A stretch of 63,365 bases of DNA, counting the filler. It is 7 parts of 7 records of this genome, joined end to end, with 100 filler letters (N's around TTAATTAATTAA, not from the genome) between each part and the next. Parts side by side here need not be neighbours in the genome. Positions count along the whole stretch, not along the records: positions 36,744 to 43,503 come from SRR31156797_2286; 6 more parts are not named here. One strand, 5' to 3'. The notes beneath the pieces are model-generated. The model saw nothing but the letters and a program-made list of their open reading frames with translations. It searched no databases and was not told the DNA's origin. Below are positions 2,431-43,503 of this stretch, piece by piece. Each line of letters opens with the position of its first letter. The stretch's first letter is position 1. The position numbers and the translations under genes were made by a program.

Positions 2431-2992
<562 letters not shown>

Positions 2993-2994
<2 letters not shown>

Positions 2995-3018
2995 TCTATG
3001 TATTTGCATAGGCTTTTT
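2993..3018 (+). terminator. Terminator-like hairpin between pyrR and pyrP
   Basis: AGTCTATGT-attt-GCATAGGCT followed by TTTT. Confidence 0.55.
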
Positions 3019-3060
3019 ATTTATACATAATTATTTATTTTTCATAGGAGGATTTATCTG

Positions 3061-4326
3061 ATGAGTGAAAACTCTGTACAAAAGAAGTTGGATTGGAAGA
3101 TGTTAGTATTAGGACTGCAGCATTTGTTTGCTATGTTTGGCGCAACAATTGTAGTACCTGCGTTAACAGGACTGGATGTAGGAGTGGCACTGTTTACTGC
3201 TGGCTGCGGTACACTGCTGTTCCATTTCATAACAAAAAGGAAAGTACCAGTATTTCTAGGTTCATCATTTGCATTCATGGGAGCTATAGCATACATTGTT
3301 CAGTCTGAGGGCAAGGAATATGCAACAGGAGCGATTATGATTGCTGGTGTATGTTATCTGATTTTTGCACTGCTGGTAAAGTTATTTGGTTCTGAAAAAG
3401 TGAGGAAGATATTCCCTGCTATTGTTACAGGTCCTGTAATTATAGTAATTGGTTTGACTCTTGCCCCAACAGTTATTTACAATGACATTACTGCTGATTT
3501 CGTAGGCGGTCTGCTATGGACAAAGTGGGTGGTAGCAGTCAGTGCAATTATTACAGTCGTAGTAGTATCAATCTTTACAAAAGGTTTCTTTAAACTTGTA
3601 CCAATATTATTCGGTCTTATTGTTGGATACTTAGTATCTGTTCTTCTGCACTTTAGTGTTGCAGTACCTGAGGGAGTATCGCCGTTGATGAGCTTTACGC
3701 CATTTACAACTGCAAAGGTCTTTAGTTTACCAAACTTCCATCTTCCGAAATTCAGCTGGACATCCATTCTGGCTATAGCACCTATTTCTATAGCAACATT
3801 TATGGAGCATCTAGGGGATATCACTACAAATGGTTCTGTTGTAGGTGAAGATTTCTTCAAAGATCCTGGACTGGACAGAACATTAATCGGTGACGGTATT
3901 GCCACAATGTTTGCTGGTCTTTGCGGTGGTCCTGCAAATACTACATACGGAGAAAACACAGGAGTATTGGCAGTAACAAAGAACTACAATCCAAAGACAA
4001 TTAGAGTCGCTGCTATATATGCAATAGCGCTGTCCTTCATCGGCTTCTTCGGAGCATTTTTGCAGTCAGTACCATTGCCTGTAATTGGCGGAATGAGCTT
4101 CGTACTCTTTGGCATGATTGCATCTATCGGTATCAGAACTATGGCGGAGGCCAAGGTTGACTTTACAAAGAGCCGTAACCTGCTGATATTATCTATCATA
4201 CTAATTACTGGTATCGGTGTAACTATTCAGGTTACTGATGTATTCTCTGTGTCAGGTATCGCTCTGGCTGCACTTGTAGGAATTATCCTAAATGCAGTAC
4301 TGCCAGATAAGATTGACAATAAATAA
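3061..4326 (+). CDS. pyrP: Uracil permease (NCS2/UraA family)
   Basis: GLQHLFAMFGAT, FLGSSFAF, EHLGD, TTYGENTGV; position in the pyr operon. Confidence 0.93.
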   Translation: MSENSVQKKLDWKMLVLGLQHLFAMFGATIVVPALTGLDVGVALFTAGCGTLLFHFITKRKVPVFLGSSFAFMGAIAYIVQSEGKEYATGAIMIAGVCYLIFALLVKLFGSEKVRKIFPAIVTGPVIIVIGLTLAPTVIYNDITADFVGGLLWTKWVVAVSAIITVVVVSIFTKGFFKLVPILFGLIVGYLVSVLLHFSVAVPEGVSPLMSFTPFTTAKVFSLPNFHLPKFSWTSILAIAPISIATFMEHLGDITTNGSVVGEDFFKDPGLDRTLIGDGIATMFAGLCGGPANTTYGENTGVLAVTKNYNPKTIRVAAIYAIALSFIGFFGAFLQSVPLPVIGGMSFVLFGMIASIGIRTMAEAKVDFTKSRNLLILSIILITGIGVTIQVTDVFSVSGIALAALVGIILNAVLPDKIDNK

Positions 4327-4446
4327 AGATAAAAAACTTGAGGGGCGATAAGCCCCTCTTAACAAAAATTATTGTTGTTCCAAGGTACAGACTTTGGAAG
4401 AGCAAGTAATCAAGTATAAGGATATGCAAAACAACGGGAGGACAAA

Positions 4447-5361
4447 ATGCGAAAAGACTTATTAGGACTAGAGGACATAAGTAAGGATGAAATAAATGAT
4501 ATCCTAAAGGCCGCTGTTCAGATGAAAAAAATACTGGACTCACCTACAAAAAAGACCCCCCATCTTCAGGGCAAATCTGTGGTAACGCTCTTTTATGAGA
4601 ATTCTACAAGGACAAGGGTTTCATTTGACTTAGCGTGTAAATACCTATCAGCTGCCAGCAGCAATGTTTCAGCGTCTTCATCAAGTGTATCAAAGGGAGA
4701 AACTCTGCTGGATACTGCAAGGACACTGGATAGAATGAAAGCTGATGTTCTGGTAATGCGCCATCCTATGGCAGGTGCACCTCACTTTATGGCAAAGCAT
4801 GTCAGTGCAAGTGTGATAAATGCAGGTGACGGTATGCATGAGCATCCTACTCAAAGCCTTTTGGACATTATGACTATAAAGGAACATTTCGGTACTCTGG
4901 AAGGGCTGAAAATAGCACTTATAGGTGATATATTTCATTCCAGAGTTGCCAGAAGTAATATATACGGCATGACGACAATGGGGGCAGAAGTAACTCTTTC
5001 GGCACCAAACACTATGCTGCCCTATGGTATAGATTCTTTGGGAGCAAAGATAGCAAAGAATATGGATGAAGCAGTTACAGGTGCTAATGTAATCATGGGA
5101 CTAAGAATTCAGAAGGAAAGACAGAGCCAAGGACTTTTTCCAAGCATAAGAGAATATCACAAGTACTTTGGAATAGATGAAAGGCGAGTTGCACTAGCCA
5201 GTGATGATGTGCTTATTATGCACCCGGGTCCTGTAAACAGAGGAGCGGAAATATCATCAATGGTAATGGACTATGACAGTTGCCTGATAGATGAGCAGGT
5301 GACCAACGGTGTGGCAATACGTATGGCATTGCTGTACATGCTGACACGGAGATTCACTTAA
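4447..5361 (+). CDS. pyrB: Aspartate carbamoyltransferase catalytic subunit
   Basis: FYENSTRTR, NAGDGMHEHPTQ, MHPGPVNRG. Confidence 0.97.
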   Translation: MRKDLLGLEDISKDEINDILKAAVQMKKILDSPTKKTPHLQGKSVVTLFYENSTRTRVSFDLACKYLSAASSNVSASSSSVSKGETLLDTARTLDRMKADVLVMRHPMAGAPHFMAKHVSASVINAGDGMHEHPTQSLLDIMTIKEHFGTLEGLKIALIGDIFHSRVARSNIYGMTTMGAEVTLSAPNTMLPYGIDSLGAKIAKNMDEAVTGANVIMGLRIQKERQSQGLFPSIREYHKYFGIDERRVALASDDVLIMHPGPVNRGAEISSMVMDYDSCLIDEQVTNGVAIRMALLYMLTRRFT

Positions 5362-5380
5362 TACAGGAGGTAAGGATTAG

Positions 5381-6655
5381 ATGAATATTTTAGTTAAGAA
5401 CATAAATATAGTAAGTCCGGCGGATGAAATTGACAAGCAATGTGATCTGCTGACAGCAAATGGCGTAATAAAAGAAATTGGTGAAAATATTGAGCATGAT
5501 GCAGATATCTTTATCGATGGACAGGGACTAACACTGCTTCCAGGCTTTGTGGATATGCACACACATCTAAGAGAACCAGGGCAGGAATATAAAGAGGATA
5601 TAGTAACAGGTACAAAGGCAGCGGCAAAGGGAGGCTTCACATCAATTGCCTGCATGGCAAACACATCTCCTGTTAATGACAGCCCTGCTATTACAGCATC
5701 CATTGTACAAAGAGCAAAGGAAGATGGATATGCTAAAGTTTATCCTATAGGTGCTATTACCAAAAACTTGGATGGTAAGGTATTGGTGGAGATGGGTTTG
5801 ATGAGTCAGGCTGGATGCGTGGCATTCTCTGATGACGGCATAGGACTTACCAGCGCAAAGGTAATGTATAATGCTATGCAGTATGCCAAGCACTTTGATA
5901 AATTTATTATCAGTCACTGTGAGACAGACTTGGCAGAGGGCGGAAGCATTAACGAAGGTATCATCAGTACGAAGATGGGCTTAAAAGGTATCAATCATAT
6001 TGCCGAGGAAATGATGGTTTATCGTGAAACGGCACTTGCAAAGGAACTGAATACAAGAGTGCATATCGCACATGTATCCACAAAGGAAAGTGTTGAGATT
6101 ATTCGCAGAGCAAAGGCTGAAGGTGTAAAGGTAACATGTGAAACCTGTCCTCATTACATAGCAGGCACAGAAGAAATGGCACTGACATTTGATACATCTA
6201 CTAAGGTTAATCCTCCTCTCAGAACAGAAGGTGATAGACTTGCTATTATCGAGGGAATAGTGGATGGTACTATTGACTGCATAGTGACAGATCATGCACC
6301 ACATCATGTGGATGACAAGCTGGTGGAATATCAATTAGCAGCAAACGGTATTTCCGGACTGGAGACTTCATTCGGTATTTGCTATAAATATCTGGTAGAA
6401 AGCGGTGAGATATCTCTGAAAAAACTGATTAAGCTGATGAGCATCAATCCGGCAAAGATTCTAGGTATTGAAGCAGGCAGCGTAGCTGTTGGAAAGAATG
6501 CAGACTTTACAATTGTAGATATAAATGAGGAATGGACAATAGATGTAAATGACTTTGTATCAAAGGGTAAGAATAATCCATTTAATGGGTATAAGGTACA
6601 AGGCAGAGTTGTGACAACTGTTACAGATGGTAAAATTATGTATCAACAGAACTAA
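5381..6655 (+). CDS. pyrC: Dihydroorotase (type I)
   Basis: DMHTHLREPG, KVNPPLR, TDHAPH. Confidence 0.97.
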   Translation: MNILVKNINIVSPADEIDKQCDLLTANGVIKEIGENIEHDADIFIDGQGLTLLPGFVDMHTHLREPGQEYKEDIVTGTKAAAKGGFTSIACMANTSPVNDSPAITASIVQRAKEDGYAKVYPIGAITKNLDGKVLVEMGLMSQAGCVAFSDDGIGLTSAKVMYNAMQYAKHFDKFIISHCETDLAEGGSINEGIISTKMGLKGINHIAEEMMVYRETALAKELNTRVHIAHVSTKESVEIIRRAKAEGVKVTCETCPHYIAGTEEMALTFDTSTKVNPPLRTEGDRLAIIEGIVDGTIDCIVTDHAPHHVDDKLVEYQLAANGISGLETSFGICYKYLVESGEISLKKLIKLMSINPAKILGIEAGSVAVGKNADFTIVDINEEWTIDVNDFVSKGKNNPFNGYKVQGRVVTTVTDGKIMYQQN

Positions 6656-6716
6656 TAAATATGCATGTTGATTTATAATTATGCATTTGCTATAATAATA
6701 TGCATAAAATAATCAA
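6650..6716 (+). promoter_or_regulatory. Internal sigmaA promoter overlapped by ARG-box-like sites upstream of pyrF-carAB
   Basis: TTGATT (6668)-17 nt-TATAAT (6691); ATGCA half-sites at 6661, 6681 and 6700 in AT-rich 18-mers resembling the ArgR consensus. Confidence 0.65.
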
Positions 6717-6780
6717 TAATTTACTTCTGCAAAACTTGCATGAATAACAAGTAAGGTAATATAAATTAAAGGTAATAATT

Positions 6781-7662
6781 ATGATAATAGATAAATTGAT
6801 AGGTAAAATAAAAGAAAAGGATAATCCTACATGCGTAGGCTTAGATACTCACCTTGGTGTGATGCCTAAGAGTTTTACAAGTGAATATGACATATCAAGT
6901 ACTGAAGGTATCGCTAATGCAGTGTATGAGTATAACAAGATATTGATAGATACTTTGGCTGATTATATCCCCAGCATAAAGATACAAAATGCATATTACG
7001 AGATGTATGGCATAGAGGGTATAAAGTGCTATGTAAAGACAATTGATTACGCAAAGAGTGCTGGTCTAGTAGTAATAGCCGATGTTAAGCGTGGAGATAT
7101 TGGTTCAACATGTAAGGCATATTCCAAAGCTCACCTAGATAATTCAGTATTCGGTGCTGACTTTATGACTATCAATCCATACTTTGGTGCTGACGGAATG
7201 CAGCCATTTATCGATGACTGCAATGAACTGGATAAGGGTGTATTTATACTGGTTAAGACATCTAATCCTACATCCAGCCAGCTACAGGATCTGCGAACAA
7301 CGGACAACATGACAATCTATGAGAAATGCGCTGATATAGTAATCCAGCTCGGCGGACAAAAAACAGGAGAATATGGATATAATTCAATCGGTGCTGTAGT
7401 TGGAGCTACTCATCCAGATCAGGGTATATCCCTCAGAAAAAGAATGAAAAATACTTTCTTCTTGATACCCGGTTATGGTGCACAGGGTGCAGGGGCAAAA
7501 GATATTGCAGGAATGTTTGATGAAAAGGGCATTGGCGGTATAGTAAACTCCTCCAGGGGTATTATAGGAGCATGGAAAAAACAAAACACAGACGACTTTG
7601 CAATAGCAGCACTTGATGCAACCATTGCAATGCGTGATGATATAAATAAGGCGATTAAATAA
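6781..7662 (+). CDS. pyrF: Orotidine-5'-phosphate decarboxylase (long subfamily)
   Basis: CVGLD, ADVKRGDIGST, LVKTSNP, GAVVGAT, LIPGYGAQG, VNSSR. Confidence 0.96.
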   Translation: MIIDKLIGKIKEKDNPTCVGLDTHLGVMPKSFTSEYDISSTEGIANAVYEYNKILIDTLADYIPSIKIQNAYYEMYGIEGIKCYVKTIDYAKSAGLVVIADVKRGDIGSTCKAYSKAHLDNSVFGADFMTINPYFGADGMQPFIDDCNELDKGVFILVKTSNPTSSQLQDLRTTDNMTIYEKCADIVIQLGGQKTGEYGYNSIGAVVGATHPDQGISLRKRMKNTFFLIPGYGAQGAGAKDIAGMFDEKGIGGIVNSSRGIIGAWKKQNTDDFAIAALDATIAMRDDINKAIK

Positions 7663-7688
7663 AACAACTAATTTAGGAATGGTGTAAC

Positions 7689-8735
7689 ATGGCATTTTTA
7701 GTATTAGAAGATGGAACAATGTACGAGGGCAAATCCTTTGGTTCAGTAAGTGATACTGTAGGTGAAGTTGTCTTTAACACAGGCATGACAGGTTATCAGG
7801 AGGTTCTAACTGATCCGTCCTACTACGGACAGATTGTTATGATGACATATCCTTTGATAGGTAACTACGGTGTCAACTGGGAAGATCCAGAGAGCCAGCA
7901 TCCGCAGGTAAAGGGCTTCATAGTTCGTGAATTGTGTGAAATTCCATCAAACTGGCACAGCGAAAGCAGTCTGAATCATTATATGGAAAAGCACAATATC
8001 GTAGGTATTCAGGGCATTGATACTCGTTCGCTGACAAGGAAAATCCGTGACCATGGTACAATGCGTGGAGTAATCTGTCATGATAATGACTGCAGTGACA
8101 GAGCGGCACTTGCCAAGGAATATATAAATACCAATCCTGTTGCTGAGGTTACATGTGAGGAAAAATTCACTATACCTGGTACAGGGAAAAAGATAGCAGT
8201 AATAGACTTTGGGCTAAAGGCATCTATCCTATCATCATTGAGGAAAAGAAACTGTCAGATAACTGTTTATCCAGCAGATGTAAAGGCTGATGAGATAAAG
8301 GAAGACAAAGCTGACGGCATAATGCTGACAAATGGTCCAGGAGATCCAAAAGATAATGAGGAAATAATAAATCAGCTAAAACAGCTTATAGGATACAAGC
8401 CAATATTCGGCATATGTCTGGGTCATCAGCTGATGGCATTGGCAAATGGGGCAGACAGCGAAAAGCTTCGCTATGGTCACAGAGGAGCTAACCATCCTGT
8501 AAAGGATTTGGAAAAGGACAGAGTGTATATCACAAGCCAGAATCATGGATACACAATTGTTGAGGAAAATTTGCCGGATAATATGATTGTTACCCATAGA
8601 AACTGGAATGATATGACCATTGAGGGCTTAAAATACACTGACCATGATACATTTACTGTTCAGTTCCACCCTGAGGCAAGTCCAGGTCCTAAGGATACTG
8701 CACACTTATTTGATGAATTTCTAGCAAAGCTATAA
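7689..8735 (+). CDS. carA: Carbamoyl-phosphate synthase small subunit
   Basis: GEVVFNTGMTGYQE, NGPGDP, GICLGHQ, QFHPE. Confidence 0.98.
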   Translation: MAFLVLEDGTMYEGKSFGSVSDTVGEVVFNTGMTGYQEVLTDPSYYGQIVMMTYPLIGNYGVNWEDPESQHPQVKGFIVRELCEIPSNWHSESSLNHYMEKHNIVGIQGIDTRSLTRKIRDHGTMRGVICHDNDCSDRAALAKEYINTNPVAEVTCEEKFTIPGTGKKIAVIDFGLKASILSSLRKRNCQITVYPADVKADEIKEDKADGIMLTNGPGDPKDNEEIINQLKQLIGYKPIFGICLGHQLMALANGADSEKLRYGHRGANHPVKDLEKDRVYITSQNHGYTIVEENLPDNMIVTHRNWNDMTIEGLKYTDHDTFTVQFHPEASPGPKDTAHLFDEFLAKL

Positions 8736-8747
8736 TAGGGAGATATT

Positions 8748-11700
8748 ATGCCACTTAATAAAGACATAAAAAAGGTAATAGTAATAGGCTCTGGCCCTAT
8801 AGTAATCGGTCAGGCAGCGGAATTTGACTATGCAGGTACTCAAGCCTGTCGTGCCCTGAAGGAAGAAGGCATCGAGGTTGTGCTGTGTAATTCCAACCCG
8901 GCTACTATTATGACTGATTTAAATATTGCCGACAGTGTTTACCTAGAACCTTTAACTAAGGATTTGATAATAAACATTATAGAGAAGGAAAAGCCTGATT
9001 CAATGCTTCCAACTTTGGGAGGTCAGACTGGTCTGAACCTTGCTATGGAATTGTTTGAGGACGGTTACCTGGAACAATCTGGTGTAAAACTGCTGGGCAC
9101 AAATGTTGAGAGTATTTACAAAGCTGAGGACAGAGATGCATTTAAGCAGACAATGCTGGAAATCGGTGAGCCAGTTATTGATTCTACAATAGTATTTGAT
9201 GTAGATGCTGCTTTGGAATTTGCGGCGGAAGTGGGCTATCCAGTTATTGTTCGTCCTGCCTATACTCTGGGCGGAAGCGGCGGCGGTATTGCTGATGACC
9301 CAAAAGAACTGGCAGTAATCTGTTCTGACGGTCTCCGATACTCACGTACCAGTCAGTGTCTAATAGAAAAGAGTGTATCCGGCTATAAGGAAATAGAATA
9401 TGAAGTAATGCGTGATTCCAAGGGCAATTGCATTACAGTATGTAATATGGAGAACATCGACCCTGTTGGTATTCATACAGGTGACTCAATAGTTGTTGCT
9501 CCCAGTCAGACCCTACGTGATGCAGAATATCAGATGCTGAGAACATCTGCTATAAATATCATTTCATCACTAAAGATAGAAGGCGGTTGTAATGTACAGT
9601 ATGCCTTGGATACTGATAGTATGAAATATGGAGTTATCGAGGTTAACCCAAGGGTTTCCCGTTCATCTGCTCTGGCATCAAAGGCTACAGGATATCCAAT
9701 AGCAAAGGTTGCCACAAAGATAGCAATTGGTTATGGATTAGATGAGATAGTAAACTCAGTTACAGGCAAAACATATGCCAGCTTTGAGCCGACTCTAGAC
9801 TACGTGGTAGCTAAATTCCCACGCTGGCCCTTTGATAAATTCACAAATGCGGAGAATACCTTAGGAACTAGAATGATGGCAACTGGTGAGGTTATGAGTA
9901 TTGGTGCTAATTTTGAAAGTGCATTTCTAAAGGCTGTATGCTCACTGGAACTAGATATGGATTCCTTAGAATTTAAAGATGCTCACAAATACTCCGATGC
10001 AGAGATTGAGGATTTGTTGAATTTTAAATCTGATGAGAGAATATTTGTTGTGACGGAAGCCCTAAGACGAGGCATATCACCTGACACAATATATGAAATA
10101 ACAAAGATTGACATATGGTATCTATATAAATTGCAGTCTATTGTTAAAACTGAAGAAAAATTAAAATCAGGTGACAAAAGCCTATTGACCAAGGAATACC
10201 TTACATATATAAAGAAAATGGGCATAAGCGATTCGGCTATTGCCAGAATGTGCAAAATTGATGAGCAGCAGGTACGTGCACTTCGCAGTGAATTTGACAT
10301 AATACCAACATACAAGATGGTTGATACATGTGGTGCAGAGTTTGATGCAGTCAGTCCATATTATTATTCTACATATGAGGATGAGAATGAAGCACAAATC
10401 GGTGATAACAAATCTGTAGTTGTTCTAGGCTCAGGTCCTATCAGAATTGGTCAGGGTGTAGAGTTCGACTATTGTTCTGTTCATTCTATCTGGGCATTAA
10501 AGGATATGGGATACGACACAGTTATAATAAACAACAATCCAGAAACGGTATCAACCGACTTTGATACATCTGATAGACTGTACTTTGAGCCTTTGACTCC
10601 TGAATATGTTTGGAATGTACTAGAGATGGAGAAACCAGACGGCGTAGTGGTACAGTTTGGTGGACAAACAGCTATAAAGATGGCAAAGTATGTACAGCAG
10701 TTAGGATACAAAATATTAGGAACTAGTCTAAGTGATATAGATGCTGCTGAGGATAGAGAGGAATTTGAAGCACTTCTGGAGAAACTGGATATTCCCAGAC
10801 CAAAAGGCTCAACAATCTTTACGGCGGATGAAGCCCTGCAGGTGGCAAATGAATTAGGCTATCCTGTGCTGGTTCGCCCATCATATGTATTAGGCGGTCA
10901 GGGTATGGAGATAGCTTATTCTGATGCTGATATCACTGAATATATGTCTATCATCAACAGATACGGTACAAAGGATCACCCGATACTAGTTGACAAATAT
11001 ATTACTGGTAAGGAAATAGAGGTTGATGCTATCTGTGATAATGAGGATATGCTAATCCCTGGTATTATGGAGCATGTAGAAAGAGCAGGTGTCCACTCAG
11101 GTGACTCAATATCAGTTTATCCTGCATATACTCTGTCAAAGATTATGATAGAGATGATAATAGAAACAACAAGGAAGTTATGCAAAGGTCTAAATGTTGT
11201 AGGAATGATAAATATACAGTACATTGAGTGTAATGGTGATTTGTATGTCATAGAAGTTAATCCTCGTTCATCCAGAACAGTACCCTATATTTCAAAGGTG
11301 ACAGGTGTTCCTATGATTGAGCTGGCTACCAAGTGTATGATAGGACACAAGCTAAAGGACTTAGGCTATGGAACAGGGTTGTATCCTTCAAGGGGAATAT
11401 ATGCCGTAAAAGTGCCTGTATTCAGCTTTGAAAAATTGCCTGAGCTGGAGGTCAGCTTGGGACCAGAAATGAAATCTACTGGTGAAGCACTAGGTGTAGA
11501 CGAGAAATTGGAACTGGCAGTGTACAAGGGATTAATCGCTGGAGGCGTTAGAATAAAGAAAAAGGGTAAAGTGCTGATATCTATTGCTGACAACAATAAG
11601 CAGGAGATAATACCATATGCAGAGGACTTGATTTCTCTAGGGTATGAAGTGTATGCAACCAGTGGTACACAGCATGCATTAACAGCAGGATATGTACCTG

Positions 11701-34577: not shown

Positions 34578-35807
34578 ATGCAAAAATTGATGATCCTTGG
34601 AGCCGCTAAATCACAGGTTCCAATAATAAAACTAGCTAAGAAACGTGGCTTTGAAACAGTTGTAGTGAGCTGTAATGGAGATTATCCTGGTTTAAAGCTC
34701 GCAGATAAGACCTATGAAATAGATGTATGCAATAAAGCAAAAGTCCTTGAAGTTGCTGAAAAAGAGCATGTTGATGGGATCGTTACAGATCAACTTGATT
34801 TTCCAGTTCCAACCGTTGCTTATGTAACTGAGAAATTAAACCTGCCAAGTATTGGCTATGATTGCGCACTAAAGTTCACCAATAAATACCTAATGAGAAA
34901 TGAATCTTCTAAATTAGGAATAAAGAATCCTGAATACTATAAGGTTTCAACCCTGGACGAAGCCAGAGAAAAAAGTTTGGACATTGGCCTTCCAGTAGTA
35001 ATGAAACCTACAGACAGTGCTGGTAGTAGGGGTGTATCAGTAGTAAGAACTATCGCAGAACTTGAGGAAAACTTTGAGCCTGCAATTGCTTATTCTAGTG
35101 AGAATTGCCTGATAATAGAAAAGTACATCCATGGAGTTGATTATGGAGTTTCAGGCTTTGCCTCAAATTATAAATTCACAAATTTAGTTCTTGGAAAAAG
35201 GGAATTATTTGATATCCCAGGCGCATTCATTCCCAGCTCAACTTTTTATACTTCAGTTCCTGATAATGATATTGAAGAGCAGATACTAAAAAACAATAAA
35301 ATTCTGATTGAGGGCTTTGGTTTAAAGTTCGGTGTTACTCACTGTGAATATATAGTTGAAGAAGGAACAGGGGACATATATTTTGTAGAATGTGCTGCCA
35401 GAGGTGCTGCCATATGTATTTCGTCCCATCAAATACCATTAGCTACTGGCGTCGATGCAAATAGCCTGTTGATTGATGTTGCAGTGGGGAACACAGAGGA
35501 AATTAAAATTGAAAATATTAAGAGCAATGTTTCGGGATATTTAGCGTTTACATTACCAAAGGGTGTTGTTAAAGAAATTAGAGGGATGGAAAATATAAAA
35601 TCAGTGCCAGGTGTCCAGAAAGTGTACATTGACCCTATATATATTGGAATGGAAACAAAAACAGCGACCGATAAAGGGAACCGCATGGGTCCGATCCTCT
35701 TCAAAGGTGAAAGTAAAGAACAATGTGAAAAGATAATAAATGAAATAAAGTCTTTGCTTGAAATAGATGTTGAAACCTCTGAAGGAATAAAAGGTATAAT
35801 TTGGTAG
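34578..35807 (+). CDS. ATP-grasp family protein (amino acid ligase/carboxylase-like)
   Basis: FTNKYLMR, PVVMKPTDSAGSRGV, IIEKYI, HCEY, FVECAAR. Confidence 0.88.
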   Translation: MQKLMILGAAKSQVPIIKLAKKRGFETVVVSCNGDYPGLKLADKTYEIDVCNKAKVLEVAEKEHVDGIVTDQLDFPVPTVAYVTEKLNLPSIGYDCALKFTNKYLMRNESSKLGIKNPEYYKVSTLDEAREKSLDIGLPVVMKPTDSAGSRGVSVVRTIAELEENFEPAIAYSSENCLIIEKYIHGVDYGVSGFASNYKFTNLVLGKRELFDIPGAFIPSSTFYTSVPDNDIEEQILKNNKILIEGFGLKFGVTHCEYIVEEGTGDIYFVECAARGAAICISSHQIPLATGVDANSLLIDVAVGNTEEIKIENIKSNVSGYLAFTLPKGVVKEIRGMENIKSVPGVQKVYIDPIYIGMETKTATDKGNRMGPILFKGESKEQCEKIINEIKSLLEIDVETSEGIKGIIW

Positions 35808-36055: not shown

Positions 36056-36643
36056 ATGAAAAAACTGATGGTCCTTGGAGCCGCTAAAACACAGGTTCCA
36101 ATAATCAAACTAGCTAAGAAACGTGGCTTTGAAACAATTGTTGTAGGTTCTAAGGGTGACTACCCCGGTTTAAAATTTGCAGACAAGAATTATGAAGTTG
36201 ACATAGCTGATAAAGAAAAAGTGTTGGAAATTGCTGAAATAGAGCAAGTTGATGGGGTTGTTACAGATCAACTTGATTTTCCTGTTCCAATCGTTGCACA
36301 TGTAACTGAGAAATTAGGCCTGCCAAGTATTGGTTTTGATTGCGCACAAAAGTTTACTAATAAATACCTGATGCGAAATGAATGTTCTAAATTAGGCATA
36401 AAGAATCCTGAATACTATAAGGTTTCAGCCCTGGATGAAGCCAGGGAAAAGTGTTTAGATATTGGTTTTCCAGTAATAATAAAACCTACGGATAGTGCTG
36501 GTAGTAGAGGTATATCAGTGATAAGAAATATCGCTGAACTGGAAGATAAATTCGAACCTGCAATTGTTTATTCTAGTGATGATTCTTTGATAGTAGAAAA
36601 GTACATTCAGGGAGATGAATATGCAATTGCGGGCTTTGCTTCA
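36056..36643 (+). CDS. ATP-grasp family protein, paralog of the preceding gene, 3'-truncated
   Basis: Near-identical N-terminus (LGAAK.QVPIIKLAKKRGFET, TDQLDFPVP, KPTDSAGSRG). Confidence 0.88.
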
Positions 36644-36743: not shown

Positions 36744-36768
36744 GCTGTTTGTGGATGAGGTGGTGGTG
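36744..36768 (+). repeat. Left copy of the 25-bp terminal direct repeat
   Basis: GCTGTTTGTGGATGAGGTGGTGGTG, identical to 43479-43503; continues GAG TAA (LFVDEVVVE*). Confidence 0.95.
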
Positions 36769-36831
36769 GAGTAAGTAAAAAATATCTTATCCAGGAAAAA
36801 ACCTAACTTTACTCACAAATTTATATTTACC

Positions 36832-37446
36832 ATGCAATTCAATTTATTCTCGAATCCCAGTAATGATATACAACACCTAACCAATGGAGAGTATCTACTC
36901 CTCCCCAATTTTTACAACTACGTTGAGAGTAACGATCTTATGGAAGCCCTTGCCAAAAAGACAAACTGGAAACAGGAAAAAATAGATATGTATGGAAAGG
37001 AAGTTTTATTTCCGAGGCAAACAGCATGGTACGGAGACCAGGATAAAGACTACAGTTTTTCAGGACTAAAACTACGGCCGGAAAAATGGACTCCAGATTT
37101 ACTTCAAATAAAAAATGACATTGAAAAACTTGGCTATGGTAAATTTAATAGTGTTTTGCTAAACCACTACCGCGATGGTTCCGATTCCATTTCATGGCAC
37201 AGCGATTCCGAAAAAGAATTGGGTAAAAATCCAGTAATCGCATCATTAAGTTTTGGCGCAACAAGAAAGTTCCAATTGAGGCATAAGCTTACCAAAGAAA
37301 AAGTTAACCTTGAGCTGCAACATGGAACCTTGCTCATCATGATGGGTGAAATGCAACATTACTGGCAGCATCAAATTCCAAAAACAAAATCCGATATTGG
37401 CCCAAGAATAAATTTAACATTCAGATACATTTATGATTTGGGATAA
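36832..37446 (+). CDS. AlkB-family (ALKBH2/3-like) 2-oxoglutarate/Fe(II) dioxygenase
   Basis: PRQTAWYG, LLNHYRDGSDSISWHSD (HxD), SLSFGATRKF, WQHQIPK, RINLTFR. Confidence 0.93.
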   Translation: MQFNLFSNPSNDIQHLTNGEYLLLPNFYNYVESNDLMEALAKKTNWKQEKIDMYGKEVLFPRQTAWYGDQDKDYSFSGLKLRPEKWTPDLLQIKNDIEKLGYGKFNSVLLNHYRDGSDSISWHSDSEKELGKNPVIASLSFGATRKFQLRHKLTKEKVNLELQHGTLLIMMGEMQHYWQHQIPKTKSDIGPRINLTFRYIYDLG

Positions 37447-38461
37447 GCTAAATATCAAAACCGAAAATGGTGAAACGGTTGAAGCACAGGCACCCATAAT
37501 TATTAGCGCCAGCCGCTCAACAGATATACCTGCATTTTATTCTGACTGGTTCATTGAGCGGGTAAGAAAGGGGTATTTGAAATGGATAAACCCCTTTAAT
37601 GGACTTCCACTTTATGTCTCATTTGCCAATACAAGGCTTGTCGTTTTTTGGTCGAAAAATCCTGAGCCAATCATTACCCACTTAGATTACCTTGATGAGA
37701 AGGGAATCAATTACTATTTTCAGTTTACGCTCAACGATTATGATAAAGAAAACTTAGAGACTAATGTGCCTAAAGTTGAAAACCGAATTGATACATTTAT
37801 CAGATTATCTGAAAAAATAGGAAAGGAAAAAGTGATCTGGCGATTTGACCCATTTATTTTAACTGATGACATGGGCGTTGATGAACTTTTACGGAAAACA
37901 GAACGAATTGGAGACCAGCTTAAAAATCACACCAATAAACTTGTATTTAGTTTTGCTGACATAAAAGAATATAAGAAAGTTCAAAATAATTTAAGACGGA
38001 GTGCTGTAAAGTATCAGGAGTTTAATGAACGAACCATGAATGAGTTGGCAGCAGGGCTAATGCAGCTCAATAAAAAATGGGATTTCGAAGTCGGGACATG
38101 TGCTGAAAAAATCGACCTGGAAAATTATGGAATTAAGCACAACAAATGTATTGATGATGATTTAATGATCAGATTATTCAGCAGCGAAAAAAAATTAATG
38201 AGTTTCCTGGGGCATCATCCAAGCCCTTCCCAGCTTGATTTATTCTCCGGTGAATCAGACCAAAAAAGCAAACCAAAAAAGATAAAGGATAAAGGGCAGC
38301 GCAAATTATGCGGCTGTATTGCCAGCAAAGATATTGGCCAATATAATACATGTATCCACGGTTGTTTGTATTGTTATGCAAATACATCACATGAAACGGC
38401 TGCTAAAAATTTTGAAAAGCATCAATTAAATCCTAAAGCAGAATCAATTACCGGGAAATGA
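37433..38461 (+). CDS. DUF1848 family protein (Cys-rich, probable Fe-S, radical-SAM-like)
   Basis: IISASRSTDIPAFYSDWF, VFWSKNP, WRFDP, QR..CGC..SKDIG.YNTCIHGCLYCYAN. Confidence 0.9.
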   Translation: MIWDKLNIKTENGETVEAQAPIIISASRSTDIPAFYSDWFIERVRKGYLKWINPFNGLPLYVSFANTRLVVFWSKNPEPIITHLDYLDEKGINYYFQFTLNDYDKENLETNVPKVENRIDTFIRLSEKIGKEKVIWRFDPFILTDDMGVDELLRKTERIGDQLKNHTNKLVFSFADIKEYKKVQNNLRRSAVKYQEFNERTMNELAAGLMQLNKKWDFEVGTCAEKIDLENYGIKHNKCIDDDLMIRLFSSEKKLMSFLGHHPSPSQLDLFSGESDQKSKPKKIKDKGQRKLCGCIASKDIGQYNTCIHGCLYCYANTSHETAAKNFEKHQLNPKAESITGK

Positions 38462-41400
38462 AAATGAAAGAATACAACTTAAAGATTGAGCAATTAGAAT
38501 TACCGACATTCCAGCAAATACGGAAAATAGCTAATGAAAGCATTTCTCATTTGACAACTGAAAAGCGAAATAAACTATGGCATGATTTACAACGCGGCGA
38601 AATTCTATTGAATAGTCATGAACTACTGTGCCAGTATCTTTGGTCTTACGGAAATATGCATGAGGCAAAAATAAACTCAGCCTTAAATTCAATTGAAGAA
38701 CCTGAAAAGGTTTTTAATAATGAATTCGATATCATCGATTGGGGGTGTGGACAAGCATTAGCAACTATATGTTTTTTTGACTTTTTGAAAGAAAAAAACA
38801 TAAATAATAATGTTAAAGAAGTTACTCTAATTGAACCTTCTAAAATAACCATTGAAAGAGCTAAACTACATACAAATAGTTACCTGAAAAATGGGAGTAA
38901 GATACGTACAGTAAACAAATATTTGGATCATGTAGAAAAATCTGATATTAAAACCTCTCAACAGCTAACATTGCATTTTTTCTCAAACATTTTGGACATT
39001 TCCTCCATTGACTTGAAGAGGTTAGCCAGCCTTTTCCTGAATGATATTATTGGAGAACATTATTTTTTCTGTGTTGGTCCATTAAATTATCATTCAACCC
39101 GTATTGAAGAATTTGCCAATCACCTAAAAATTGACACTGATCTGATTATCAAAAAGTATCAGGGGCAACTGAAAAATACAAAAGGTACAATAAAATTATT
39201 GGTATTTAAAATAAAAGGCAAAGAGATTGAAGTATTAAAAACTGATTATTATCCACGTGCTCCTAATAATATAAACAGCTTAATCATGGTAGAAAAAATT
39301 TTAAGTAAAATCGATCCGGCAATAATGGTAGCAGAAGAAAGAATAATTCAATTTTATAAATCTGTTATTGAATTAGAACAACAAAAAGAACCGGAAATAA
39401 AAGAGTTTTATCAATACCCATTATCCAATGTAAATGATCAATCGTTCTCAATAGATTTATCACAAAATAGTGACTTCTTGAATAAGTTTGAGAACAATAG
39501 AGACCCAATAATCACAGATTGGCCCGAAGATTTATATATAGGAATCAATGCAGTTTTAAATCAGAAATCCTATTCATTGCTAAGCTATATAATTCCCTTT
39601 GATGAAATAAAAAACATCGATCCTAAAACGCAAAAACTAAATGTTAGGTTGCAGGACTTTACCTTAAATCTAAGTGTATTTGACAAGCTTGAATTTTCAG
39701 AAAAACAAATATCAGAATTAGAAGAAAGCATAAAAGAGGCGTCATCAATATCAAGACTATCTTCGATTTTTGAAGAAAAAATTGATAAAGACATAGAAAT
39801 TCAAGAAGGGTTGTTTTTAGCCCTTAGCTCAAAAAAACAGTCCTTGCTTCAAATATATTCTGAATTGAACAGGATAGATTATGACAAAATATTATTTGGA
39901 AAATTATTACATCAATTCCTTTTAAGCGTTGAGATTGAGAATGAAATGAATGACCTAAAAAGGGAAGATTTAGTACAAATTACTGATATTGATGAGAGAC
40001 AGAAACAGGCTATTTTACATGCTTTTAATAACAAATTATCAGTTATAACTGGCCCTCCGGGAACCGGTAAAACTCAAGTGATTTTAAATATCCTGGCAAA
40101 TGCAATTATTCAGAATAAAAAAGTATTAGTGGCAAGTAAAAACAATAAGGCTGTTGATAACGTAAAAGACAGGTTTGACAAGATTGACAACTTGGGATTT
40201 TTATTACGATTTGGGTCAAAAGATGTTTTAACAAATACTTCTATTCCATCTATAAATACTATTGTAAATTCAATTCCAGATTTGGAATTTGATGAAGAGC
40301 ACCTAAAAAATTTAAAATTGCGGAGTACTCTTTCAAAAAAGATAATAAATGAACAAAAAGCCAGGCTTAAAGAAAGAGATAATTTAATAGCTAAGCTACC
40401 TGACATCGAATCACAAATTACAAGTGCTGAAGAAACAATATCTCGATATCACAACAAATATGTAAATGACCGTAATAAATTAATTGAAAATAATAGTGAT
40501 ATAGACTTCATCAGAAGTATATATAATGTATCGCAAATGGACAAGTTAAATTCGAAACTCATAACGCAAAAAAACTATTTAGATTTAAAACACTCTGGTA
40601 TCAGAAAAATTTGGATGAATTGGTTTTATAAGAAGAAAATTGCAAATGAATTTTTAAACACAATTAACGAATATCCTTTTGAAATTAAGAACTATTTGAA
40701 ATTAAATGGATTGAAAACACAGATTTCAGATTATGAAAACTGCCAAGATATATTAACTTCCTACAAAATACCAATCTCATTATTTTCTAACGCCATTGAG
40801 TACATTAAAAAGCTAAATGACTTAGAAAAGGAATATTTGAAAAATGATGAAAGCCAAAAAGTTAATCTAAAAAAGTTGACAGATACTAGGATAGACTACC
40901 AAAACGAAATAAAAGAAATAACGGATAATGAATTGGAGATTAAGCGTAATATTGAAGAAAATGAAGTGACATTGATAAAATTAGGTAAACCTCTGGTTTT
41001 GGAGACAATTAAATCAAGAATAAAACATGCACATATTCCGAACATAATTAACTACTTAAATTATCTACCGGATGATATCCCTTGGCAATTTGCACTCATA
41101 CCAGCTTTTGTTAACGCTACTAATTCGTTTTTAGATATTTTCAATATCTCATCTGTTACAAGTTTGTCAGCAAAAGCAGCTTTTCCGCTTGAGCATGAAT
41201 TATTTGATATGGTTGTAATAGATGAAGCTTCTCAATGTGATATTGCCTCCGCAATTCCATTAATTTTAAGAGCAAAACAATTAGTGGTCATCGGTGATCC
41301 ATTGCAGTTAAAGCACATATCTAAAGTAAATGGTTATGAAGAAGCTTTAATAAAAGAGCATTTGCAAATCAGTGATTTTGCCTTTCTACACTATAATGAC

Positions 41401-42057
41401 AAATCTCTTTGGGATTATTGCAAAGACCTTTTGGCTCGCACTGCATCGCCAAATAAATTTCCAATAATGTTAGATAAACATTACAGAAGTCACCCAAATG
41501 TAATTGGATATTCTAATGAAGCATTTTATACAAACTTACTTAACAACCCATTAGATATATGCACCAAGGATTCTCAATTTCAAATAGAGCCAAAGGGGAT
41601 GTTTTGGATTGATGTGAAAGGTCTACAGAAAGCAAACAACATTAATGTTAATGAAAAGGAAGTTGAAACATCAATTAAGATTGCTGTAAAACTTGCCGAT
41701 AAATATCCTGATATTTCAATTGGAATCGTTACACCTTTTAAGGATCAAGCAAAACAATTAAAATCCAAAATTCCGGCAAAACATAAAGTTAATGAAAGAA
41801 TATTTGCTGACACCGTACATAAATTCCAAGGTGACGAAAAAGATATTATGATTTACAGCCTTGTTGTTACAGATAATTCTCCTAAAACAAAAATACGATG
41901 GATTGATGAGTATGTGCCAAATTTGGTTAATGTTGCTGTTACAAGAGCAAGAAATACTCTATATATTGTTGGTAACAAACAATACATAAAGAACAACTCC
42001 AATGCAACAAAGCCTCTTGGTAAACTCCTCCAATATGTTGAAAATCTATCAAATTGA
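38458..42057 (+). CDS. Class I methyltransferase-like domain fused to a Upf1/Dna2-like SF1 helicase
   Basis: N-terminal IIDWGCGQALAT, LIEPS, FFSNILDI; GPPGTGKT, VIDEASQ, VIGDPLQL, HYRSHP, IVTPF, TVHKFQGDEKD, NVAVTRAR. Confidence 0.9.
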   Translation: MKMKEYNLKIEQLELPTFQQIRKIANESISHLTTEKRNKLWHDLQRGEILLNSHELLCQYLWSYGNMHEAKINSALNSIEEPEKVFNNEFDIIDWGCGQALATICFFDFLKEKNINNNVKEVTLIEPSKITIERAKLHTNSYLKNGSKIRTVNKYLDHVEKSDIKTSQQLTLHFFSNILDISSIDLKRLASLFLNDIIGEHYFFCVGPLNYHSTRIEEFANHLKIDTDLIIKKYQGQLKNTKGTIKLLVFKIKGKEIEVLKTDYYPRAPNNINSLIMVEKILSKIDPAIMVAEERIIQFYKSVIELEQQKEPEIKEFYQYPLSNVNDQSFSIDLSQNSDFLNKFENNRDPIITDWPEDLYIGINAVLNQKSYSLLSYIIPFDEIKNIDPKTQKLNVRLQDFTLNLSVFDKLEFSEKQISELEESIKEASSISRLSSIFEEKIDKDIEIQEGLFLALSSKKQSLLQIYSELNRIDYDKILFGKLLHQFLLSVEIENEMNDLKREDLVQITDIDERQKQAILHAFNNKLSVITGPPGTGKTQVILNILANAIIQNKKVLVASKNNKAVDNVKDRFDKIDNLGFLLRFGSKDVLTNTSIPSINTIVNSIPDLEFDEEHLKNLKLRSTLSKKIINEQKARLKERDNLIAKLPDIESQITSAEETISRYHNKYVNDRNKLIENNSDIDFIRSIYNVSQMDKLNSKLITQKNYLDLKHSGIRKIWMNWFYKKKIANEFLNTINEYPFEIKNYLKLNGLKTQISDYENCQDILTSYKIPISLFSNAIEYIKKLNDLEKEYLKNDESQKVNLKKLTDTRIDYQNEIKEITDNELEIKRNIEENEVTLIKLGKPLVLETIKSRIKHAHIPNIINYLNYLPDDIPWQFALIPAFVNATNSFLDIFNISSVTSLSAKAAFPLEHELFDMVVIDEASQCDIASAIPLILRAKQLVVIGDPLQLKHISKVNGYEEALIKEHLQISDFAFLHYNDKSLWDYCKDLLARTASPNKFPIMLDKHYRSHPNVIGYSNEAFYTNLLNNPLDICTKDSQFQIEPKGMFWIDVKGLQKANNINVNEKEVETSIKIAVKLADKYPDISIGIVTPFKDQAKQLKSKIPAKHKVNERIFADTVHKFQGDEKDIMIYSLVVTDNSPKTKIRWIDEYVPNLVNVAVTRARNTLYIVGNKQYIKNNSNATKPLGKLLQYVENLSN

Positions 42058-42318
42058 CATATCATCTGAGAGAGCTTTTAGGTCAACCCATTTTACAAAA
42101 AGAAACCATATAAAAAACCAAAAAACAAGAATTTCGGAAATCAAAGTCCAGCTTTTGAAAAAACAAAATATGAACAGTTACATAACCTGGGCGATTTTGA
42201 TAATAGGATTTGTGATCGTGGGATTATTTGCAGCTTATTAAAGTATTGGTTTTGTATGGCAAGAGTCCTTCCACATTTTTTCACCTCCTGAAGTTTGGTT
42301 ATCAATTATTATTTACTC

Positions 42319-43341
42319 CTAAAAAGGCGGCCTGTTATCAAATTCATCTCCGTAAAAGTCTAAATCAAATTGCAAATCACGCCTCTGTTTTTCTCTTTCA
42401 GCTACATACTCCTGATAGTAATAATCCGCACATTTTTCACTGTCCGGCTCTAAAAAATCATCCTCGAGATAAAATTCAAGTCGATCCAGGCCATGGTTCA
42501 TCAGGTGTATATGTAAGCGGACATCGCGTAATACCGATTTTATTTCGGCTTCCGCATCGTAGTCAGATTCAAGCAGGATAATTCCGTAGGCAAGCATCTT
42601 ACGTAGTTTTAAGGCATCTTCACAAAGGATTGCATACATCTTTTCATAAGGTGCAATTTCTTTAAAATCCAGCAATACCTGCTCAACCCGGTCAACATAA
42701 TTTAATTTGCCATGAAAGTCAGTCGCGTCACGTGAAAAATAATGATCATAAATCGTGTTGAGTTTTTTCACAAATTCATCCCTGGCCGCAAGAAATTCCT
42801 CATCGAATTTCCGGCAACCCGGCAATTCCCTGCTCCTATCGATATCAGGTATAATTTCGTTGTAGTAGTACTGTTCTGCAAACTTTCTTTCTTCCACTAT
42901 CTTCTGCCTTGTTTGCGCATTAAGTTTATATTCATCCGCTCTGAGATATCGTTCTTCTTCGGTAGTTAATTCCTCCTCCGGGATTTCGTTTATTGCTTCA
43001 TCATCCATCCCCAATTTTTTCATAAGCTTCCACCGCATGACTTTCACCCCCGCTAAACGAAGATCAATTTCAGGTCCATCAGTGTGATCTGGCTCCAGGC
43101 CATTAATCAAATCCATCATTTTGAGAATGATATTGCAAACTTCTTCCAGGATACTTTCATCTGTTGAAGTCTTTTGCCTGGGGCAGTCTAAAACCCGGAG
43201 CATATTTTTCAAGCCAATCCGGAGCATTCTTACATTTCGGGTAGCAATGGAATTGGACATTTCCCGCAAAATTTCATGGGTTCGTTCCTGGTTTCTGACA
43301 GGTTGCTGTGAAACAGAGTGTGATTTTAGCATGTTGTCCAT
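42319..43341 (-). CDS. Hypothetical acidic helical protein
   Basis: 340-aa ORF; Bacteroidota-type TAAATTTG element 26-33 nt upstream on the minus strand. Confidence 0.75.
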   Translation of the reverse strand: MDNMLKSHSVSQQPVRNQERTHEILREMSNSIATRNVRMLRIGLKNMLRVLDCPRQKTSTDESILEEVCNIILKMMDLINGLEPDHTDGPEIDLRLAGVKVMRWKLMKKLGMDDEAINEIPEEELTTEEERYLRADEYKLNAQTRQKIVEERKFAEQYYYNEIIPDIDRSRELPGCRKFDEEFLAARDEFVKKLNTIYDHYFSRDATDFHGKLNYVDRVEQVLLDFKEIAPYEKMYAILCEDALKLRKMLAYGIILLESDYDAEAEIKSVLRDVRLHIHLMNHGLDRLEFYLEDDFLEPDSEKCADYYYQEYVAEREKQRRDLQFDLDFYGDEFDNRPPF

Positions 43342-43366
43342 TTTTTATTAATTGACCTACTCCCGG

Positions 43367-43374
43367 CAAATTTA
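43367..43374 (-). promoter_or_regulatory. Bacteroidota-type -7 promoter element (TAnnTTTG)
   Basis: Minus strand TAAATTTG upstream of the 42319-43341 ORF. Confidence 0.5.
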
Positions 43375-43443
43375 GGAATTTTGCAAAATCACAAAAAGTG
43401 TTGTTAACAAAACATCAAACTCTTATTGTTCAAGAATTAAACT

Positions 43444-43503
43444 CCACCCTGGCACCGCGGCGCCGGGGATGACGCCTGGCTGTTTGTGGATGAGGTGGTG
43501 GTG
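43444..43503 (+). repeat. Orphan gene 3'-end fragment containing the right copy of the 25-bp direct repeat (att-like)
   Basis: Reads PPWHRGAGDDAWLFVDEVVV; 42/60 GC in an AT-rich contig; in-frame TAA just upstream at 43438-43440. Confidence 0.8.

Follow-up and report, generated by a model that had tools for sequence, protein, structure and literature searches.

A methyltransferase-like domain recurrently linked to AlkB and DUF1848 proteins: a candidate module of conflict over nucleic-acid methyl marks

The window analysed here, a stretch of DNA of 63,365 nucleotides (nt) in all, raises the question of what would bring an AlkB-type dioxygenase, a DUF1848 protein and a methyltransferase-like helicase together in one operon. 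It consists of seven contigs joined through artificial N44-TTAATTAATTAA-N44 spacers, and the operon has a contig of its own (SRR31156797_2286; 36744-43503, 6,760 bp, GC content 0.338). The three co-oriented open reading frames (ORFs; 36832-37446, 37433-38461 and 38458-42057) overlap by 14 nt (ATGATTTGGGATAA) between the AlkB and DUF1848 genes and by 4 nt (ATGA) between the DUF1848 gene and the helicase fusion. The ORF calls, the overlaps and the family matches (PF13532, PF08902 and AAA_11/AAA_12, together with the motif DWGCGQ in the third protein) confirm the arrangement and the identities given by a sequence-only reading, which took these genes for a candidate undescribed nucleic-acid modification or defence system. 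That reading missed a regularity: the invariant core of the system is the methyltransferase-like domain of the third protein, here called domain A. We regard it as highly probable that the module is real and conserved.

We compared 28 loci that encode domain A outside the window, counting AlkB and/or DUF1848 as a partner when found within about 4 kb. A partner is present at 24 of the 28, in unrelated genomes, with varying gene order and with fusions, and the expectation that the genes would recur together is thus borne out. Three of the four remaining loci (L087, L088 and L101) lie at contig ends, where the partner would be expected, and at one of the domain-A loci cut in this way the contig starts within a DUF1848 gene, of which the final 18 residues are present. 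The fourth, L083, is a true miss, with no AlkB or DUF1848 partner within 12.9 kb. DUF1848 is matched in each of the 17 Bacteroidales genomes that have domain A (16 above the cut-off and one through a below-cut-off fragment at a contig start), against a background of 72 of 401 Bacteroidales genomes. That three unrelated genes came together by chance on one short contig would fit the fact that the exact gene order of the window occurs on this one contig. It is nevertheless very improbable, given the translational overlaps and a linkage that recurs across phyla, with changes of gene order and with fusions.

The linkage follows domain A and not the helicase. Among 19 metagenome loci surveyed through the helicase, the three full-length relatives that carry domain A are followed by DUF1848 (L046, L047) or AlkB (L034), whereas one of 11 relatives without domain A has DUF1848 alongside. 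No DUF1848 gene was found after AlkB in the last 690 nt of L034, nor was a split domain-A gene found upstream of the helicase of L035. Beside DUF1848, domain A is fused to UvrD-like superfamily 1 (SF1) helicases, to a DEAD superfamily 2 (SF2) helicase, to Sel1 or leucine-rich repeats (LRR), or belongs to a 480-aa protein. At E<=1e-10, 1.84 billion proteins include 1,253 representatives of the family, and those listed range from 237 to 2,494 residues; domain A is one conserved domain joined to variable modules. Its distribution is sporadic, at 1-4% of genomes in three samples: strong matches occur in 3 of 401 Bacteroidota genomes (with two more weak ones at E<=1e-5), 17 of 401 Bacteroidales and 5 of 391 Flavobacteriales. 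Two plasmid records, both from Moraxella osloensis, and one unverified record in a phage collection also match strongly.

AlkB and DUF1848 substitute for one another in the same slot. In one architecture the slot is followed by a small SF1 helicase, a fused gene for an ADP-ribosyltransferase and an ADP-ribose glycohydrolase (ART/ARG), and a protein that joins an N-terminal half, X, to domain A; here both partners are present at L002, DUF1848 alone at L059 and AlkB alone at L100. The fusion of domain A to a DEAD helicase is accompanied by DUF1848 only at L016 and by AlkB only at L058. The fusion of domain A to an Upf1-like helicase has both partners in the window, DUF1848 only at L081, L046 and L047, and AlkB only at L034.

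AlkB needs molecular oxygen (O2), and an iron-sulfur (Fe-S) enzyme need not depend on it. We set the prediction that the partner follows O2 use and compared two orders; Bacteroidales are mainly anaerobes, and Flavobacteriales, as well as Moraxella, mainly aerobes. DUF1848 stands beside domain A in 14 of 17 Bacteroidales genomes and in one of five Flavobacteriales genomes, whereas AlkB stands beside it in none of the 17 Bacteroidales examined and in four of the five Flavobacteriales, the fifth being cut by a contig end. Anywhere in the genome, PF08902 is found in 72 of 401 Bacteroidales and 4 of 391 Flavobacteriales, which makes DUF1848 about 18 times commoner in the former. Whether DUF1848 is a functional counterpart of AlkB is, in our judgement, evenly balanced. 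The fuller proposition remains doubtful, although well above negligible: that DUF1848 would be an O2-independent, radical-SAM-like (SAM, S-adenosylmethionine) equivalent of AlkB for anaerobes, reversing or transforming N-methylated bases in single-stranded DNA or RNA, and that these enzymes, singly or, where oxygen fluctuates, jointly, would be paired with a helicase-tethered methyltransferase in an unrecognised class of methylation-based conflict systems.

What, then, do the three proteins look like? The AlkB gene (36832-37446, plus strand) encodes a 204-aa 2-oxoglutarate/Fe(II) dioxygenase that matches PF13532 (7.5e-36, 124.6 bits against a cut-off of 31.2). Its closest solved relatives are human ALKBH3 (7.6e-40) and ALKBH2 (7e-34), and all 16 matches in the PDB at E<=0.001 are to one or the other. 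The HxD...H iron triad and the 2-oxoglutarate-binding arginines of the RxxxxxR motif are present when aligned to ALKBH3 (H123-x-D125, H180, R192 and R198), and these residues are invariant in eight of eight cassette AlkBs. The enzyme is of the ALKBH2/3 type, with an active site that is intact as judged from these residues. The protein was rejected as an orthologue of Escherichia coli AlkB (TIGR00568, 28.8 bits against a cut-off of 231; NF011930, 28.2 against 267).

The third gene (38458-42057, plus strand) encodes a 1199-aa protein composed of domain A, a middle domain B and an Upf1-like SF1 helicase. Domain A (residues 1-260; 38458-39237) contains the motifs YGxMH, DWGCGQ (residues 94-99), LIEPS and FSNILD. 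In the alignment D94, G96, G98, Q99, P127 and S128 are invariant and E126 is kept in at least 90% of sequences; we take these residues to represent methyltransferase motif I (hhDxGxGxG-like) and the acidic residue after strand 2. An AlphaFold2 (AF2) model of the domain (predicted local distance difference test, pLDDT, 87.1) has 348 PDB matches at E<=0.001, and among the matches listed all have the SAM-dependent methyltransferase fold, the best being CmoA/YecO, with METTL6 at rank 11. Motifs and model together indicate a class-I SAM-methyltransferase-like fold, from which we infer that domain A may transfer methyl groups. Domain B (residues 276-500; 39283-39957) is a helicase-associated middle domain shared with helicases of about 930 aa that lack domain A; it is possibly DUF4011-like, a lead given by a protein atlas score of 0.86, below the 0.9 mark. 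The Upf1/IGHMBP2-like helicase core (39958-42057; AAA_11/AAA_12 at residues 511-1174) matches AAA_11 (1e-21, 78.3 bits) and AAA_12 (5.8e-31, 108 bits, cut-off 27) and, weakly, PF01443 (Viral_helicase1, 1.6e-09). Its motifs GPPGTGKT (532-539), DEASQ (922-926), GDPLQL (946-951) and VAVTRAR (1159-1165) are intact, and a long insertion separates motif I from motif II.

The second gene (37433-38461, plus strand) encodes a 342-aa protein that covers the whole of PF08902 (profile positions 1-262 of 262; 9.3e-96, 321.1 bits against a cut-off of 30.5). The family is large, all 8,000 scored candidates matching, and we know of no function for it; the JGI name for its members is 'DNA repair photolyase'. 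The protein has seven cysteines (223, 239, 293, 295, 307, 311 and 314), all invariant in an alignment of 36 sequences. Three of them form CIHGCLYC (residues 307-314; C307-x3-C311-x2-C314), a CX3CX2C motif kept in 36 of 36. The AF2 model (pLDDT 88.9) predicts an alpha/beta barrel, with weak fold matches to CteB (5why, E 9.7e-4) and to the pyruvate formate-lyase activating enzyme (PFL-AE, 3cb8; probability 0.99, template modelling score (TM-score) 0.45, target-normalised). In NCBIfam its sole radical-SAM match is to the PA0069 family, over 24 residues (E 2.7e-4, 20 bits against a cut-off of 360), and by sequence it has no match in the PDB at E<=1. The invariant motif suggests that DUF1848 may be a radical-SAM-like Fe-S enzyme. 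A complex prediction for domain A and DUF1848, run without alignments, scored 0.01 against a mark of 0.34 and speaks neither for nor against a complex.

A second line of evidence comes from the proteins to which DUF1848 is itself fused. P0129, with 26 member sequences, joins it to Methyltransf_23; in P0144 and seven others it is joined to N6_N4_Mtase/UPF0020 DNA methylases that have a DPPY motif, and in P0125, a single sequence, to domain A and a UvrD-like helicase. These fusions tie DUF1848 functionally to at least three kinds of SAM-dependent methyltransferase. Among 33 genomic loci with DUF1848, six have an adjoining domain A and seven others have a different methyltransferase-like gene directly upstream. 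Also recorded, in P0131-P0157, were fusions of DUF1848 to a canonical Radical_SAM domain (with PF07505 too in two cases) and to AAA+/DNA polymerase III delta' modules, as well as one copy interrupted by an intein (PF14528/PF14890). In four Bacteroidaceae loci a gene of about 190-210 aa lies directly upstream of DUF1848 (L011 9401-9979, L012 9350-9979, L014 9401-9979 and L016 6374-7003); the L011 copy is trypsin-like (Trypsin_2, 1e-06), and a 192-aa ORF at the same position in L063 (6961-7539) is, by position, probably the same gene.

Such fusions could also mean that the enzymes act in sequence, with domain A adding a methyl group to a base and AlkB or DUF1848 then converting that group, by oxidation or rearrangement, into a complex and stable mark, for self-marking or for the tuning of RNA. 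The joining of DUF1848 to three kinds of methyltransferase and to a canonical Radical_SAM domain is what consecutive steps would lead one to expect. On tRNA, ALKBH8 works in this way, and it also has a methyltransferase domain. The enzyme is described as a tRNA hydroxylase (PMC4051686). We nevertheless hold such hypermodification to be rather unlikely: the window AlkB matches ALKBH3 and ALKBH2 at 1e-40 to 1e-33, with no other protein among its PDB matches, and Pfam and PADLOC scans of the window element found no restriction or reader component.

The company that domain A keeps bears on what the module might do. In Aequorivita capsosiphonis a five-gene cassette is embedded between pglX and pglZ of a complete bacteriophage exclusion (BREX) locus, in the order BrxA, BrxB, BrxC, a 534-aa insert, PglX, the cassette, PglZ and BrxL, with strong BREX matches in PADLOC. 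The insert between brxC and pglX (L060 11779-13383, on the same record as L002) has a weak PADLOC match to prokaryotic Argonaute (pAgo, 6.6e-12) and would be a second embedded gene in this operon. The fused ART/ARG gene (2CompART and 2CompARG, PF22546 and PF22545; L002 12154-13815, L059 11329-12933) sits between the small SF1 helicase gene and the gene for X and domain A, and a 629-aa gene at the corresponding place in L100 (11127-13016) is matched by position alone. No family was found for the X half. The L059 cassette adjoins a gene for a HipA_2-like kinase. At L058 an operon of DUF6361, phospholipase D (PLD)-like and DEAD-ResIII helicase genes (2474-8911, minus strand) is divergent from the pair of AlkB and the domain A-DEAD fusion, and may be another defence system.

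How could these parts work together? The helicase would load on and unwind nucleic acid, exposing single strands on which domain A would methylate bases. AlkB, with O2, and DUF1848, without it, would share one methylated base as their target and would most likely remove its methyl group; this erasure would protect the host's own nucleic acids or restrain the writer. Such a writer-eraser design would resemble that of DarT/DarG, and the fused ART/ARG gene of the sister cassettes would follow the same logic. The module could serve anti-phage or anti-plasmid defence, or plasmid addiction; we speculate that both enzymes on the window element would suit a host with changing oxygen. With confidence somewhat below an even chance, we favour this reading of the operon as an undescribed, horizontally mobile conflict module acting on nucleic-acid methyl marks, in which DUF1848 would be the O2-independent counterpart of AlkB.

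The similarity of the window AlkB to the repair enzymes ALKBH3 and ALKBH2 is also what an alkylation-damage repair machine would show, in which the helicase hands single strands to AlkB and DUF1848, and domain A is a SAM-binding regulatory or recognition domain and not a writer. Lone DUF1848 genes are widespread among probable anaerobes, the JGI label for the family is that of a repair enzyme, and many of the neighbouring genes are housekeeping genes. In human cells ALKBH3 is served in this way by ASCC3. Their partnership is the subject of a published study (PMC8254245). A repair function would leave unexplained a methyltransferase-like domain with SAM motifs as the invariant partner at 24 of 28 loci, as well as the LRR and Sel1 fusions, the presence in 1-4% of genomes, the insertion into BREX and the company of ART/ARG. 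On this evidence we think a dedicated repair machine unlikely.

Several observations weigh against the writer-eraser reading itself. Residues 1-500 of the 1199-aa protein match no Pfam family at E<=0.05, relatives of domain A reach Methyltransf_31 only below threshold (21.1 and 18.6 bits, where 27 is required), and the TM-scores of CmoA/YecO to domain A are low (0.34-0.40); with no curated methyltransferase family and such scores, a methyl-transfer activity of domain A and any substrate for it are proposals. In DUF1848 the cysteine motif is C-terminal and does not follow the first strand, no match to Radical_SAM (PF04055) was found at E<=0.01, and the best Foldseek matches of the model are generic TIM barrels, the radical-SAM ones being weak. 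The radical-SAM-like CxxxCxxC claimed by the sequence-only reading is thus present and invariant, and membership of the radical-SAM enzymes is only suggested. DUF1848 genes mostly lack a domain-A neighbour (6 of 33 have one). It would be unusual for a single polypeptide to hold both a writer and its eraser, as the fusions of DUF1848 to methyltransferases would, and such a protein fits sequential modification equally. The contrast between orders covers two clades, which are not independent samples, and phylogenetic inertia is possible. Over a tree built from 26 domain-A sequences the partner labels lie scattered (AlkB takes five changes for six rows, against a shuffled mean of 5.6), but only three of 23 inner branches are well supported and a single switch is possible; repeated switching between AlkB and DUF1848 is therefore suggested, not proven.

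The genomic neighbourhood likewise does not present a uniform defence island. Among 144 genes neighbouring 18 related loci, most are ordinary (TonB receptors, ThiC, RecA), and each of the defence-type families present (retron reverse transcriptase, REase-ARP, PLD, PDDEXK_13) occurs at most twice. Modified phage genomes, suggested as a target by the sequence-only reading, are not supported by any of the observations. Enrichment in defence islands, which the sequence-only reading had proposed as a check, is not something we claim from this heterogeneous set, for which there was no control set.

Is the operon itself mobile? The sequence-only reading saw an AT-rich segment bounded by direct repeats, which does not hold, since this segment is a separate contig between spacers. 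The seven contigs have GC contents of 0.377, 0.497, 0.353, 0.338, 0.321, 0.566 and 0.551 in order, a spread (0.32-0.57) that makes the assembly probably a mixed bin, and at 0.338 the operon contig is not compositionally distinct from those placed on either side (0.353 and 0.321). Because the spacers are artificial, genes across them are not physical neighbours and adjacency there has no meaning. The repeats are the contig ends: the first 25 nt (36744-36768) and the last 25 nt (43479-43503) are 100% identical at a spacing of 6,735. We reject an island or insertion scar, the repeats being an assembly-graph overlap through which the element probably closes on itself, and the terminal copy lies inside a 35-nt graph node of double depth.

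Contigs of a public run (X1), probably the one from which the sequence comes, are consistent with this. Its assembly contains an identical 6,760-nt contig (depth 336.9), a 35-nt contig (depth 690) that spans 43474-43503 and 5 nt beyond, and a 1,765-nt contig (depth 348.9) whose reverse complement ends in a 60-nt near-copy of 43444-43503. From contig depths, and not from junction-spanning reads, two loops of 6.7 kb and 1.77 kb would share one short node. The operon contig probably belongs to a small, high-depth element, either a circle of about 8.5 kb or of 6.7 kb, or else a tandem array. Fragments 90-99% identical to it occur in three runs labelled microbial mat metagenome, and the sequencing runs listed for the element sequence include no RNA run.

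Downstream of the operon and convergent with it, ORF4 (42319-43341, minus strand, 340 aa) lies at a local GC content of about 0.41, above the 0.338 of the contig. It matches nothing in Pfam, NCBIfam, PADLOC or PHROG, and a search of 5.8 billion protein clusters gave just two homologues, both unnamed, which share 70-72% identity with it and lie on contigs 1.1 and 2.8 kb long. ORF4 might serve to replicate or maintain the element; its identification as a replication protein or a known plasmid protein was rejected, with no family match, no tblastn match in 72,556 plasmids and no usable protein-atlas match. A putative ORF for a 23-codon hydrophobic peptide (MNSYITWAILIIGFVIVGLFAAY, a translation only) lies downstream of the helicase at 42170-42241 on the plus strand. 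A search of the element for iterons and tandem repeats returned two trivial low-score repeats, promoter-like sites (30 against 27.7 in shuffled sequence) and terminator-like sites (4 against 4.0) show no excess, and Rfam gave no match at E<=0.1. The preceding contig has a tandem pair of paralogous genes for ATP-grasp proteins of the L-amino-acid-ligase type (LAL_C2, ATP-grasp_4; 34578-35807 and 36056-36643, plus strand), the second truncated by the contig end.

A small, high-depth, probably circular carrier would also suit a cargo for counter-defence or establishment, which would methylate incoming single-stranded plasmid or phage DNA or remove methyl damage inflicted by the host. On the Moraxella osloensis plasmid (L062, AP031476.1; 4754-5680 and 8881-11019) a stand-alone domain A and AlkB are followed directly by a gene for a single-stranded DNA-binding protein (SSB), an order that speaks for such a cargo; about 4 kb upstream of the pair is a gene with the annotation of a viperin-family radical SAM protein. 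One further copy is on a contig deposited as phage, but that record is unannotated, unverified and very like Bacteroides chromosomal loci. Since most domain-A copies are chromosomal, on contigs of 0.1-4 Mb, and one lies inside a host BREX operon, we consider counter-defence distinctly improbable, and return to the conflict module for comparison with what has been described.

As the sequence-only reading had supposed, no named system has this composition: there is none in PADLOC, and no description of the module was found in the literature searched, a scope that excluded supplements and subscription journals. In PADLOC, DUF1848 appears solely as accessory to a defence-associated reverse transcriptase (RTasDUF1848); the AlkB domain is represented there in a fusion with CARF, and the helicase core in Mokosh-type proteins. 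The present analysis adds the three-way comparison of the shared slot, the contrast between orders, the difference in DUF1848 frequency, the embedding in BREX, the catalogue of fusions and the small high-depth carrier. The closest published item is the UG25 group, in which fusions of a methyltransferase to a reverse transcriptase (RT) are linked with a DUF1848 cluster (Mestre 2022, PMC9226505). As described there, UG25 (class 1 UG/Abi, of the defence-associated reverse transcriptase (DRT) type) resembles the window in joining a methyltransferase-like domain to a nucleic-acid enzyme beside DUF1848, with a predicted defence role. It differs in having an RT where the window has an SF1 helicase, and in lacking the added AlkB. 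Membership in UG25/DRT was rejected, as no contig protein has an RVT match and the DUF1848 accessory model alone matches. If true, the writer-eraser reading would account for the DUF1848 accessory of the UG25 enzymes.

The closest functional analogue is ALKBH3 with the ASCC3 helicase (PMC8254245). That pair, too, combines an ALKBH3-type demethylase (which the window AlkB matches at 7.6e-40) with a helicase that supplies single strands. ASCC3 is an SF2 Ski2-like helicase. Unlike the window module, the pair has no methyltransferase domain and no DUF1848, and it is a housekeeping pair and not a sporadic mobile cassette. In architecture, the nearest analogue is the replicase polyprotein of plant Flexiviridae, with the order methyltransferase, AlkB, SF1 helicase and RNA-dependent RNA polymerase (RdRp) (Bratlie and Drablos 2005, PMC544882). 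It likewise brings a methyltransferase, AlkB and a helicase of the Viral_helicase1 type together; its methyltransferase is a capping enzyme of another family, the setting is an RNA-virus replicase, and DUF1848 is absent.

A further comparison is with defence helicases. Mokosh MkoA/MkoC, Hhe and ProA share with the window protein an Upf1-like helicase core and possibly a DUF4011-like middle domain, and the window helicase matches MkoC (7.9e-56), MkoA (1.8e-52), ProA (1.3e-34) and Hhe (5.6e-23). They differ in that the helicase part alone matches, the methyltransferase-like N-terminus being left uncovered by the PADLOC and NCBIfam models. Mokosh, of which type I consists of MkoA and MkoB and type II of MkoC, has a PLD-type nuclease, separate or fused. 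We rejected membership in Mokosh (no PLD domain or other nuclease in the four contig proteins; the MkoC profile matched at positions 193-963 of 1136), as well as in Hhe (80.4 bits against a cut-off of 2000) and ProA (119 against 1500).

For DUF1848 the comparison is with spore photoproduct lyase and the COG1533 'DNA repair photolyase' proteins, radical-SAM barrel enzymes that directly reverse a DNA base lesion. DUF1848 resembles them in having a CxxxCxxC Fe-S motif in a predicted barrel, a motif that aligns to the motif of the PA0069 family, and differs in the C-terminal place of the motif and in having no Pfam Radical_SAM match. We know of no established route by which strict anaerobes directly reverse lesions such as 1-methyladenine and 3-methylcytosine (m1A/m3C). 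The presence of DUF1848 in AlkB's slot, its roughly 18-fold difference between orders and its methyltransferase fusions offer a concrete hypothesis for anaerobic reversal of methyl lesions, and Bacteroides thetaiotaomicron, which has a DUF1848 gene, provides a tractable model.

In proposed design, finally, the module is like DarT/DarG, a toxin-antitoxin and anti-phage system in which a writer modifies single-stranded bases and an eraser reverses the modification. There is no homology between the two, and the window module would use methylation in place of ADP-ribosylation. If the methyltransferase-helicase is a writer and AlkB and DUF1848 are erasers, toxin-antitoxin-like or anti-phage systems would gain base methylation as a new chemistry, alongside DNA ADP-ribosylation.

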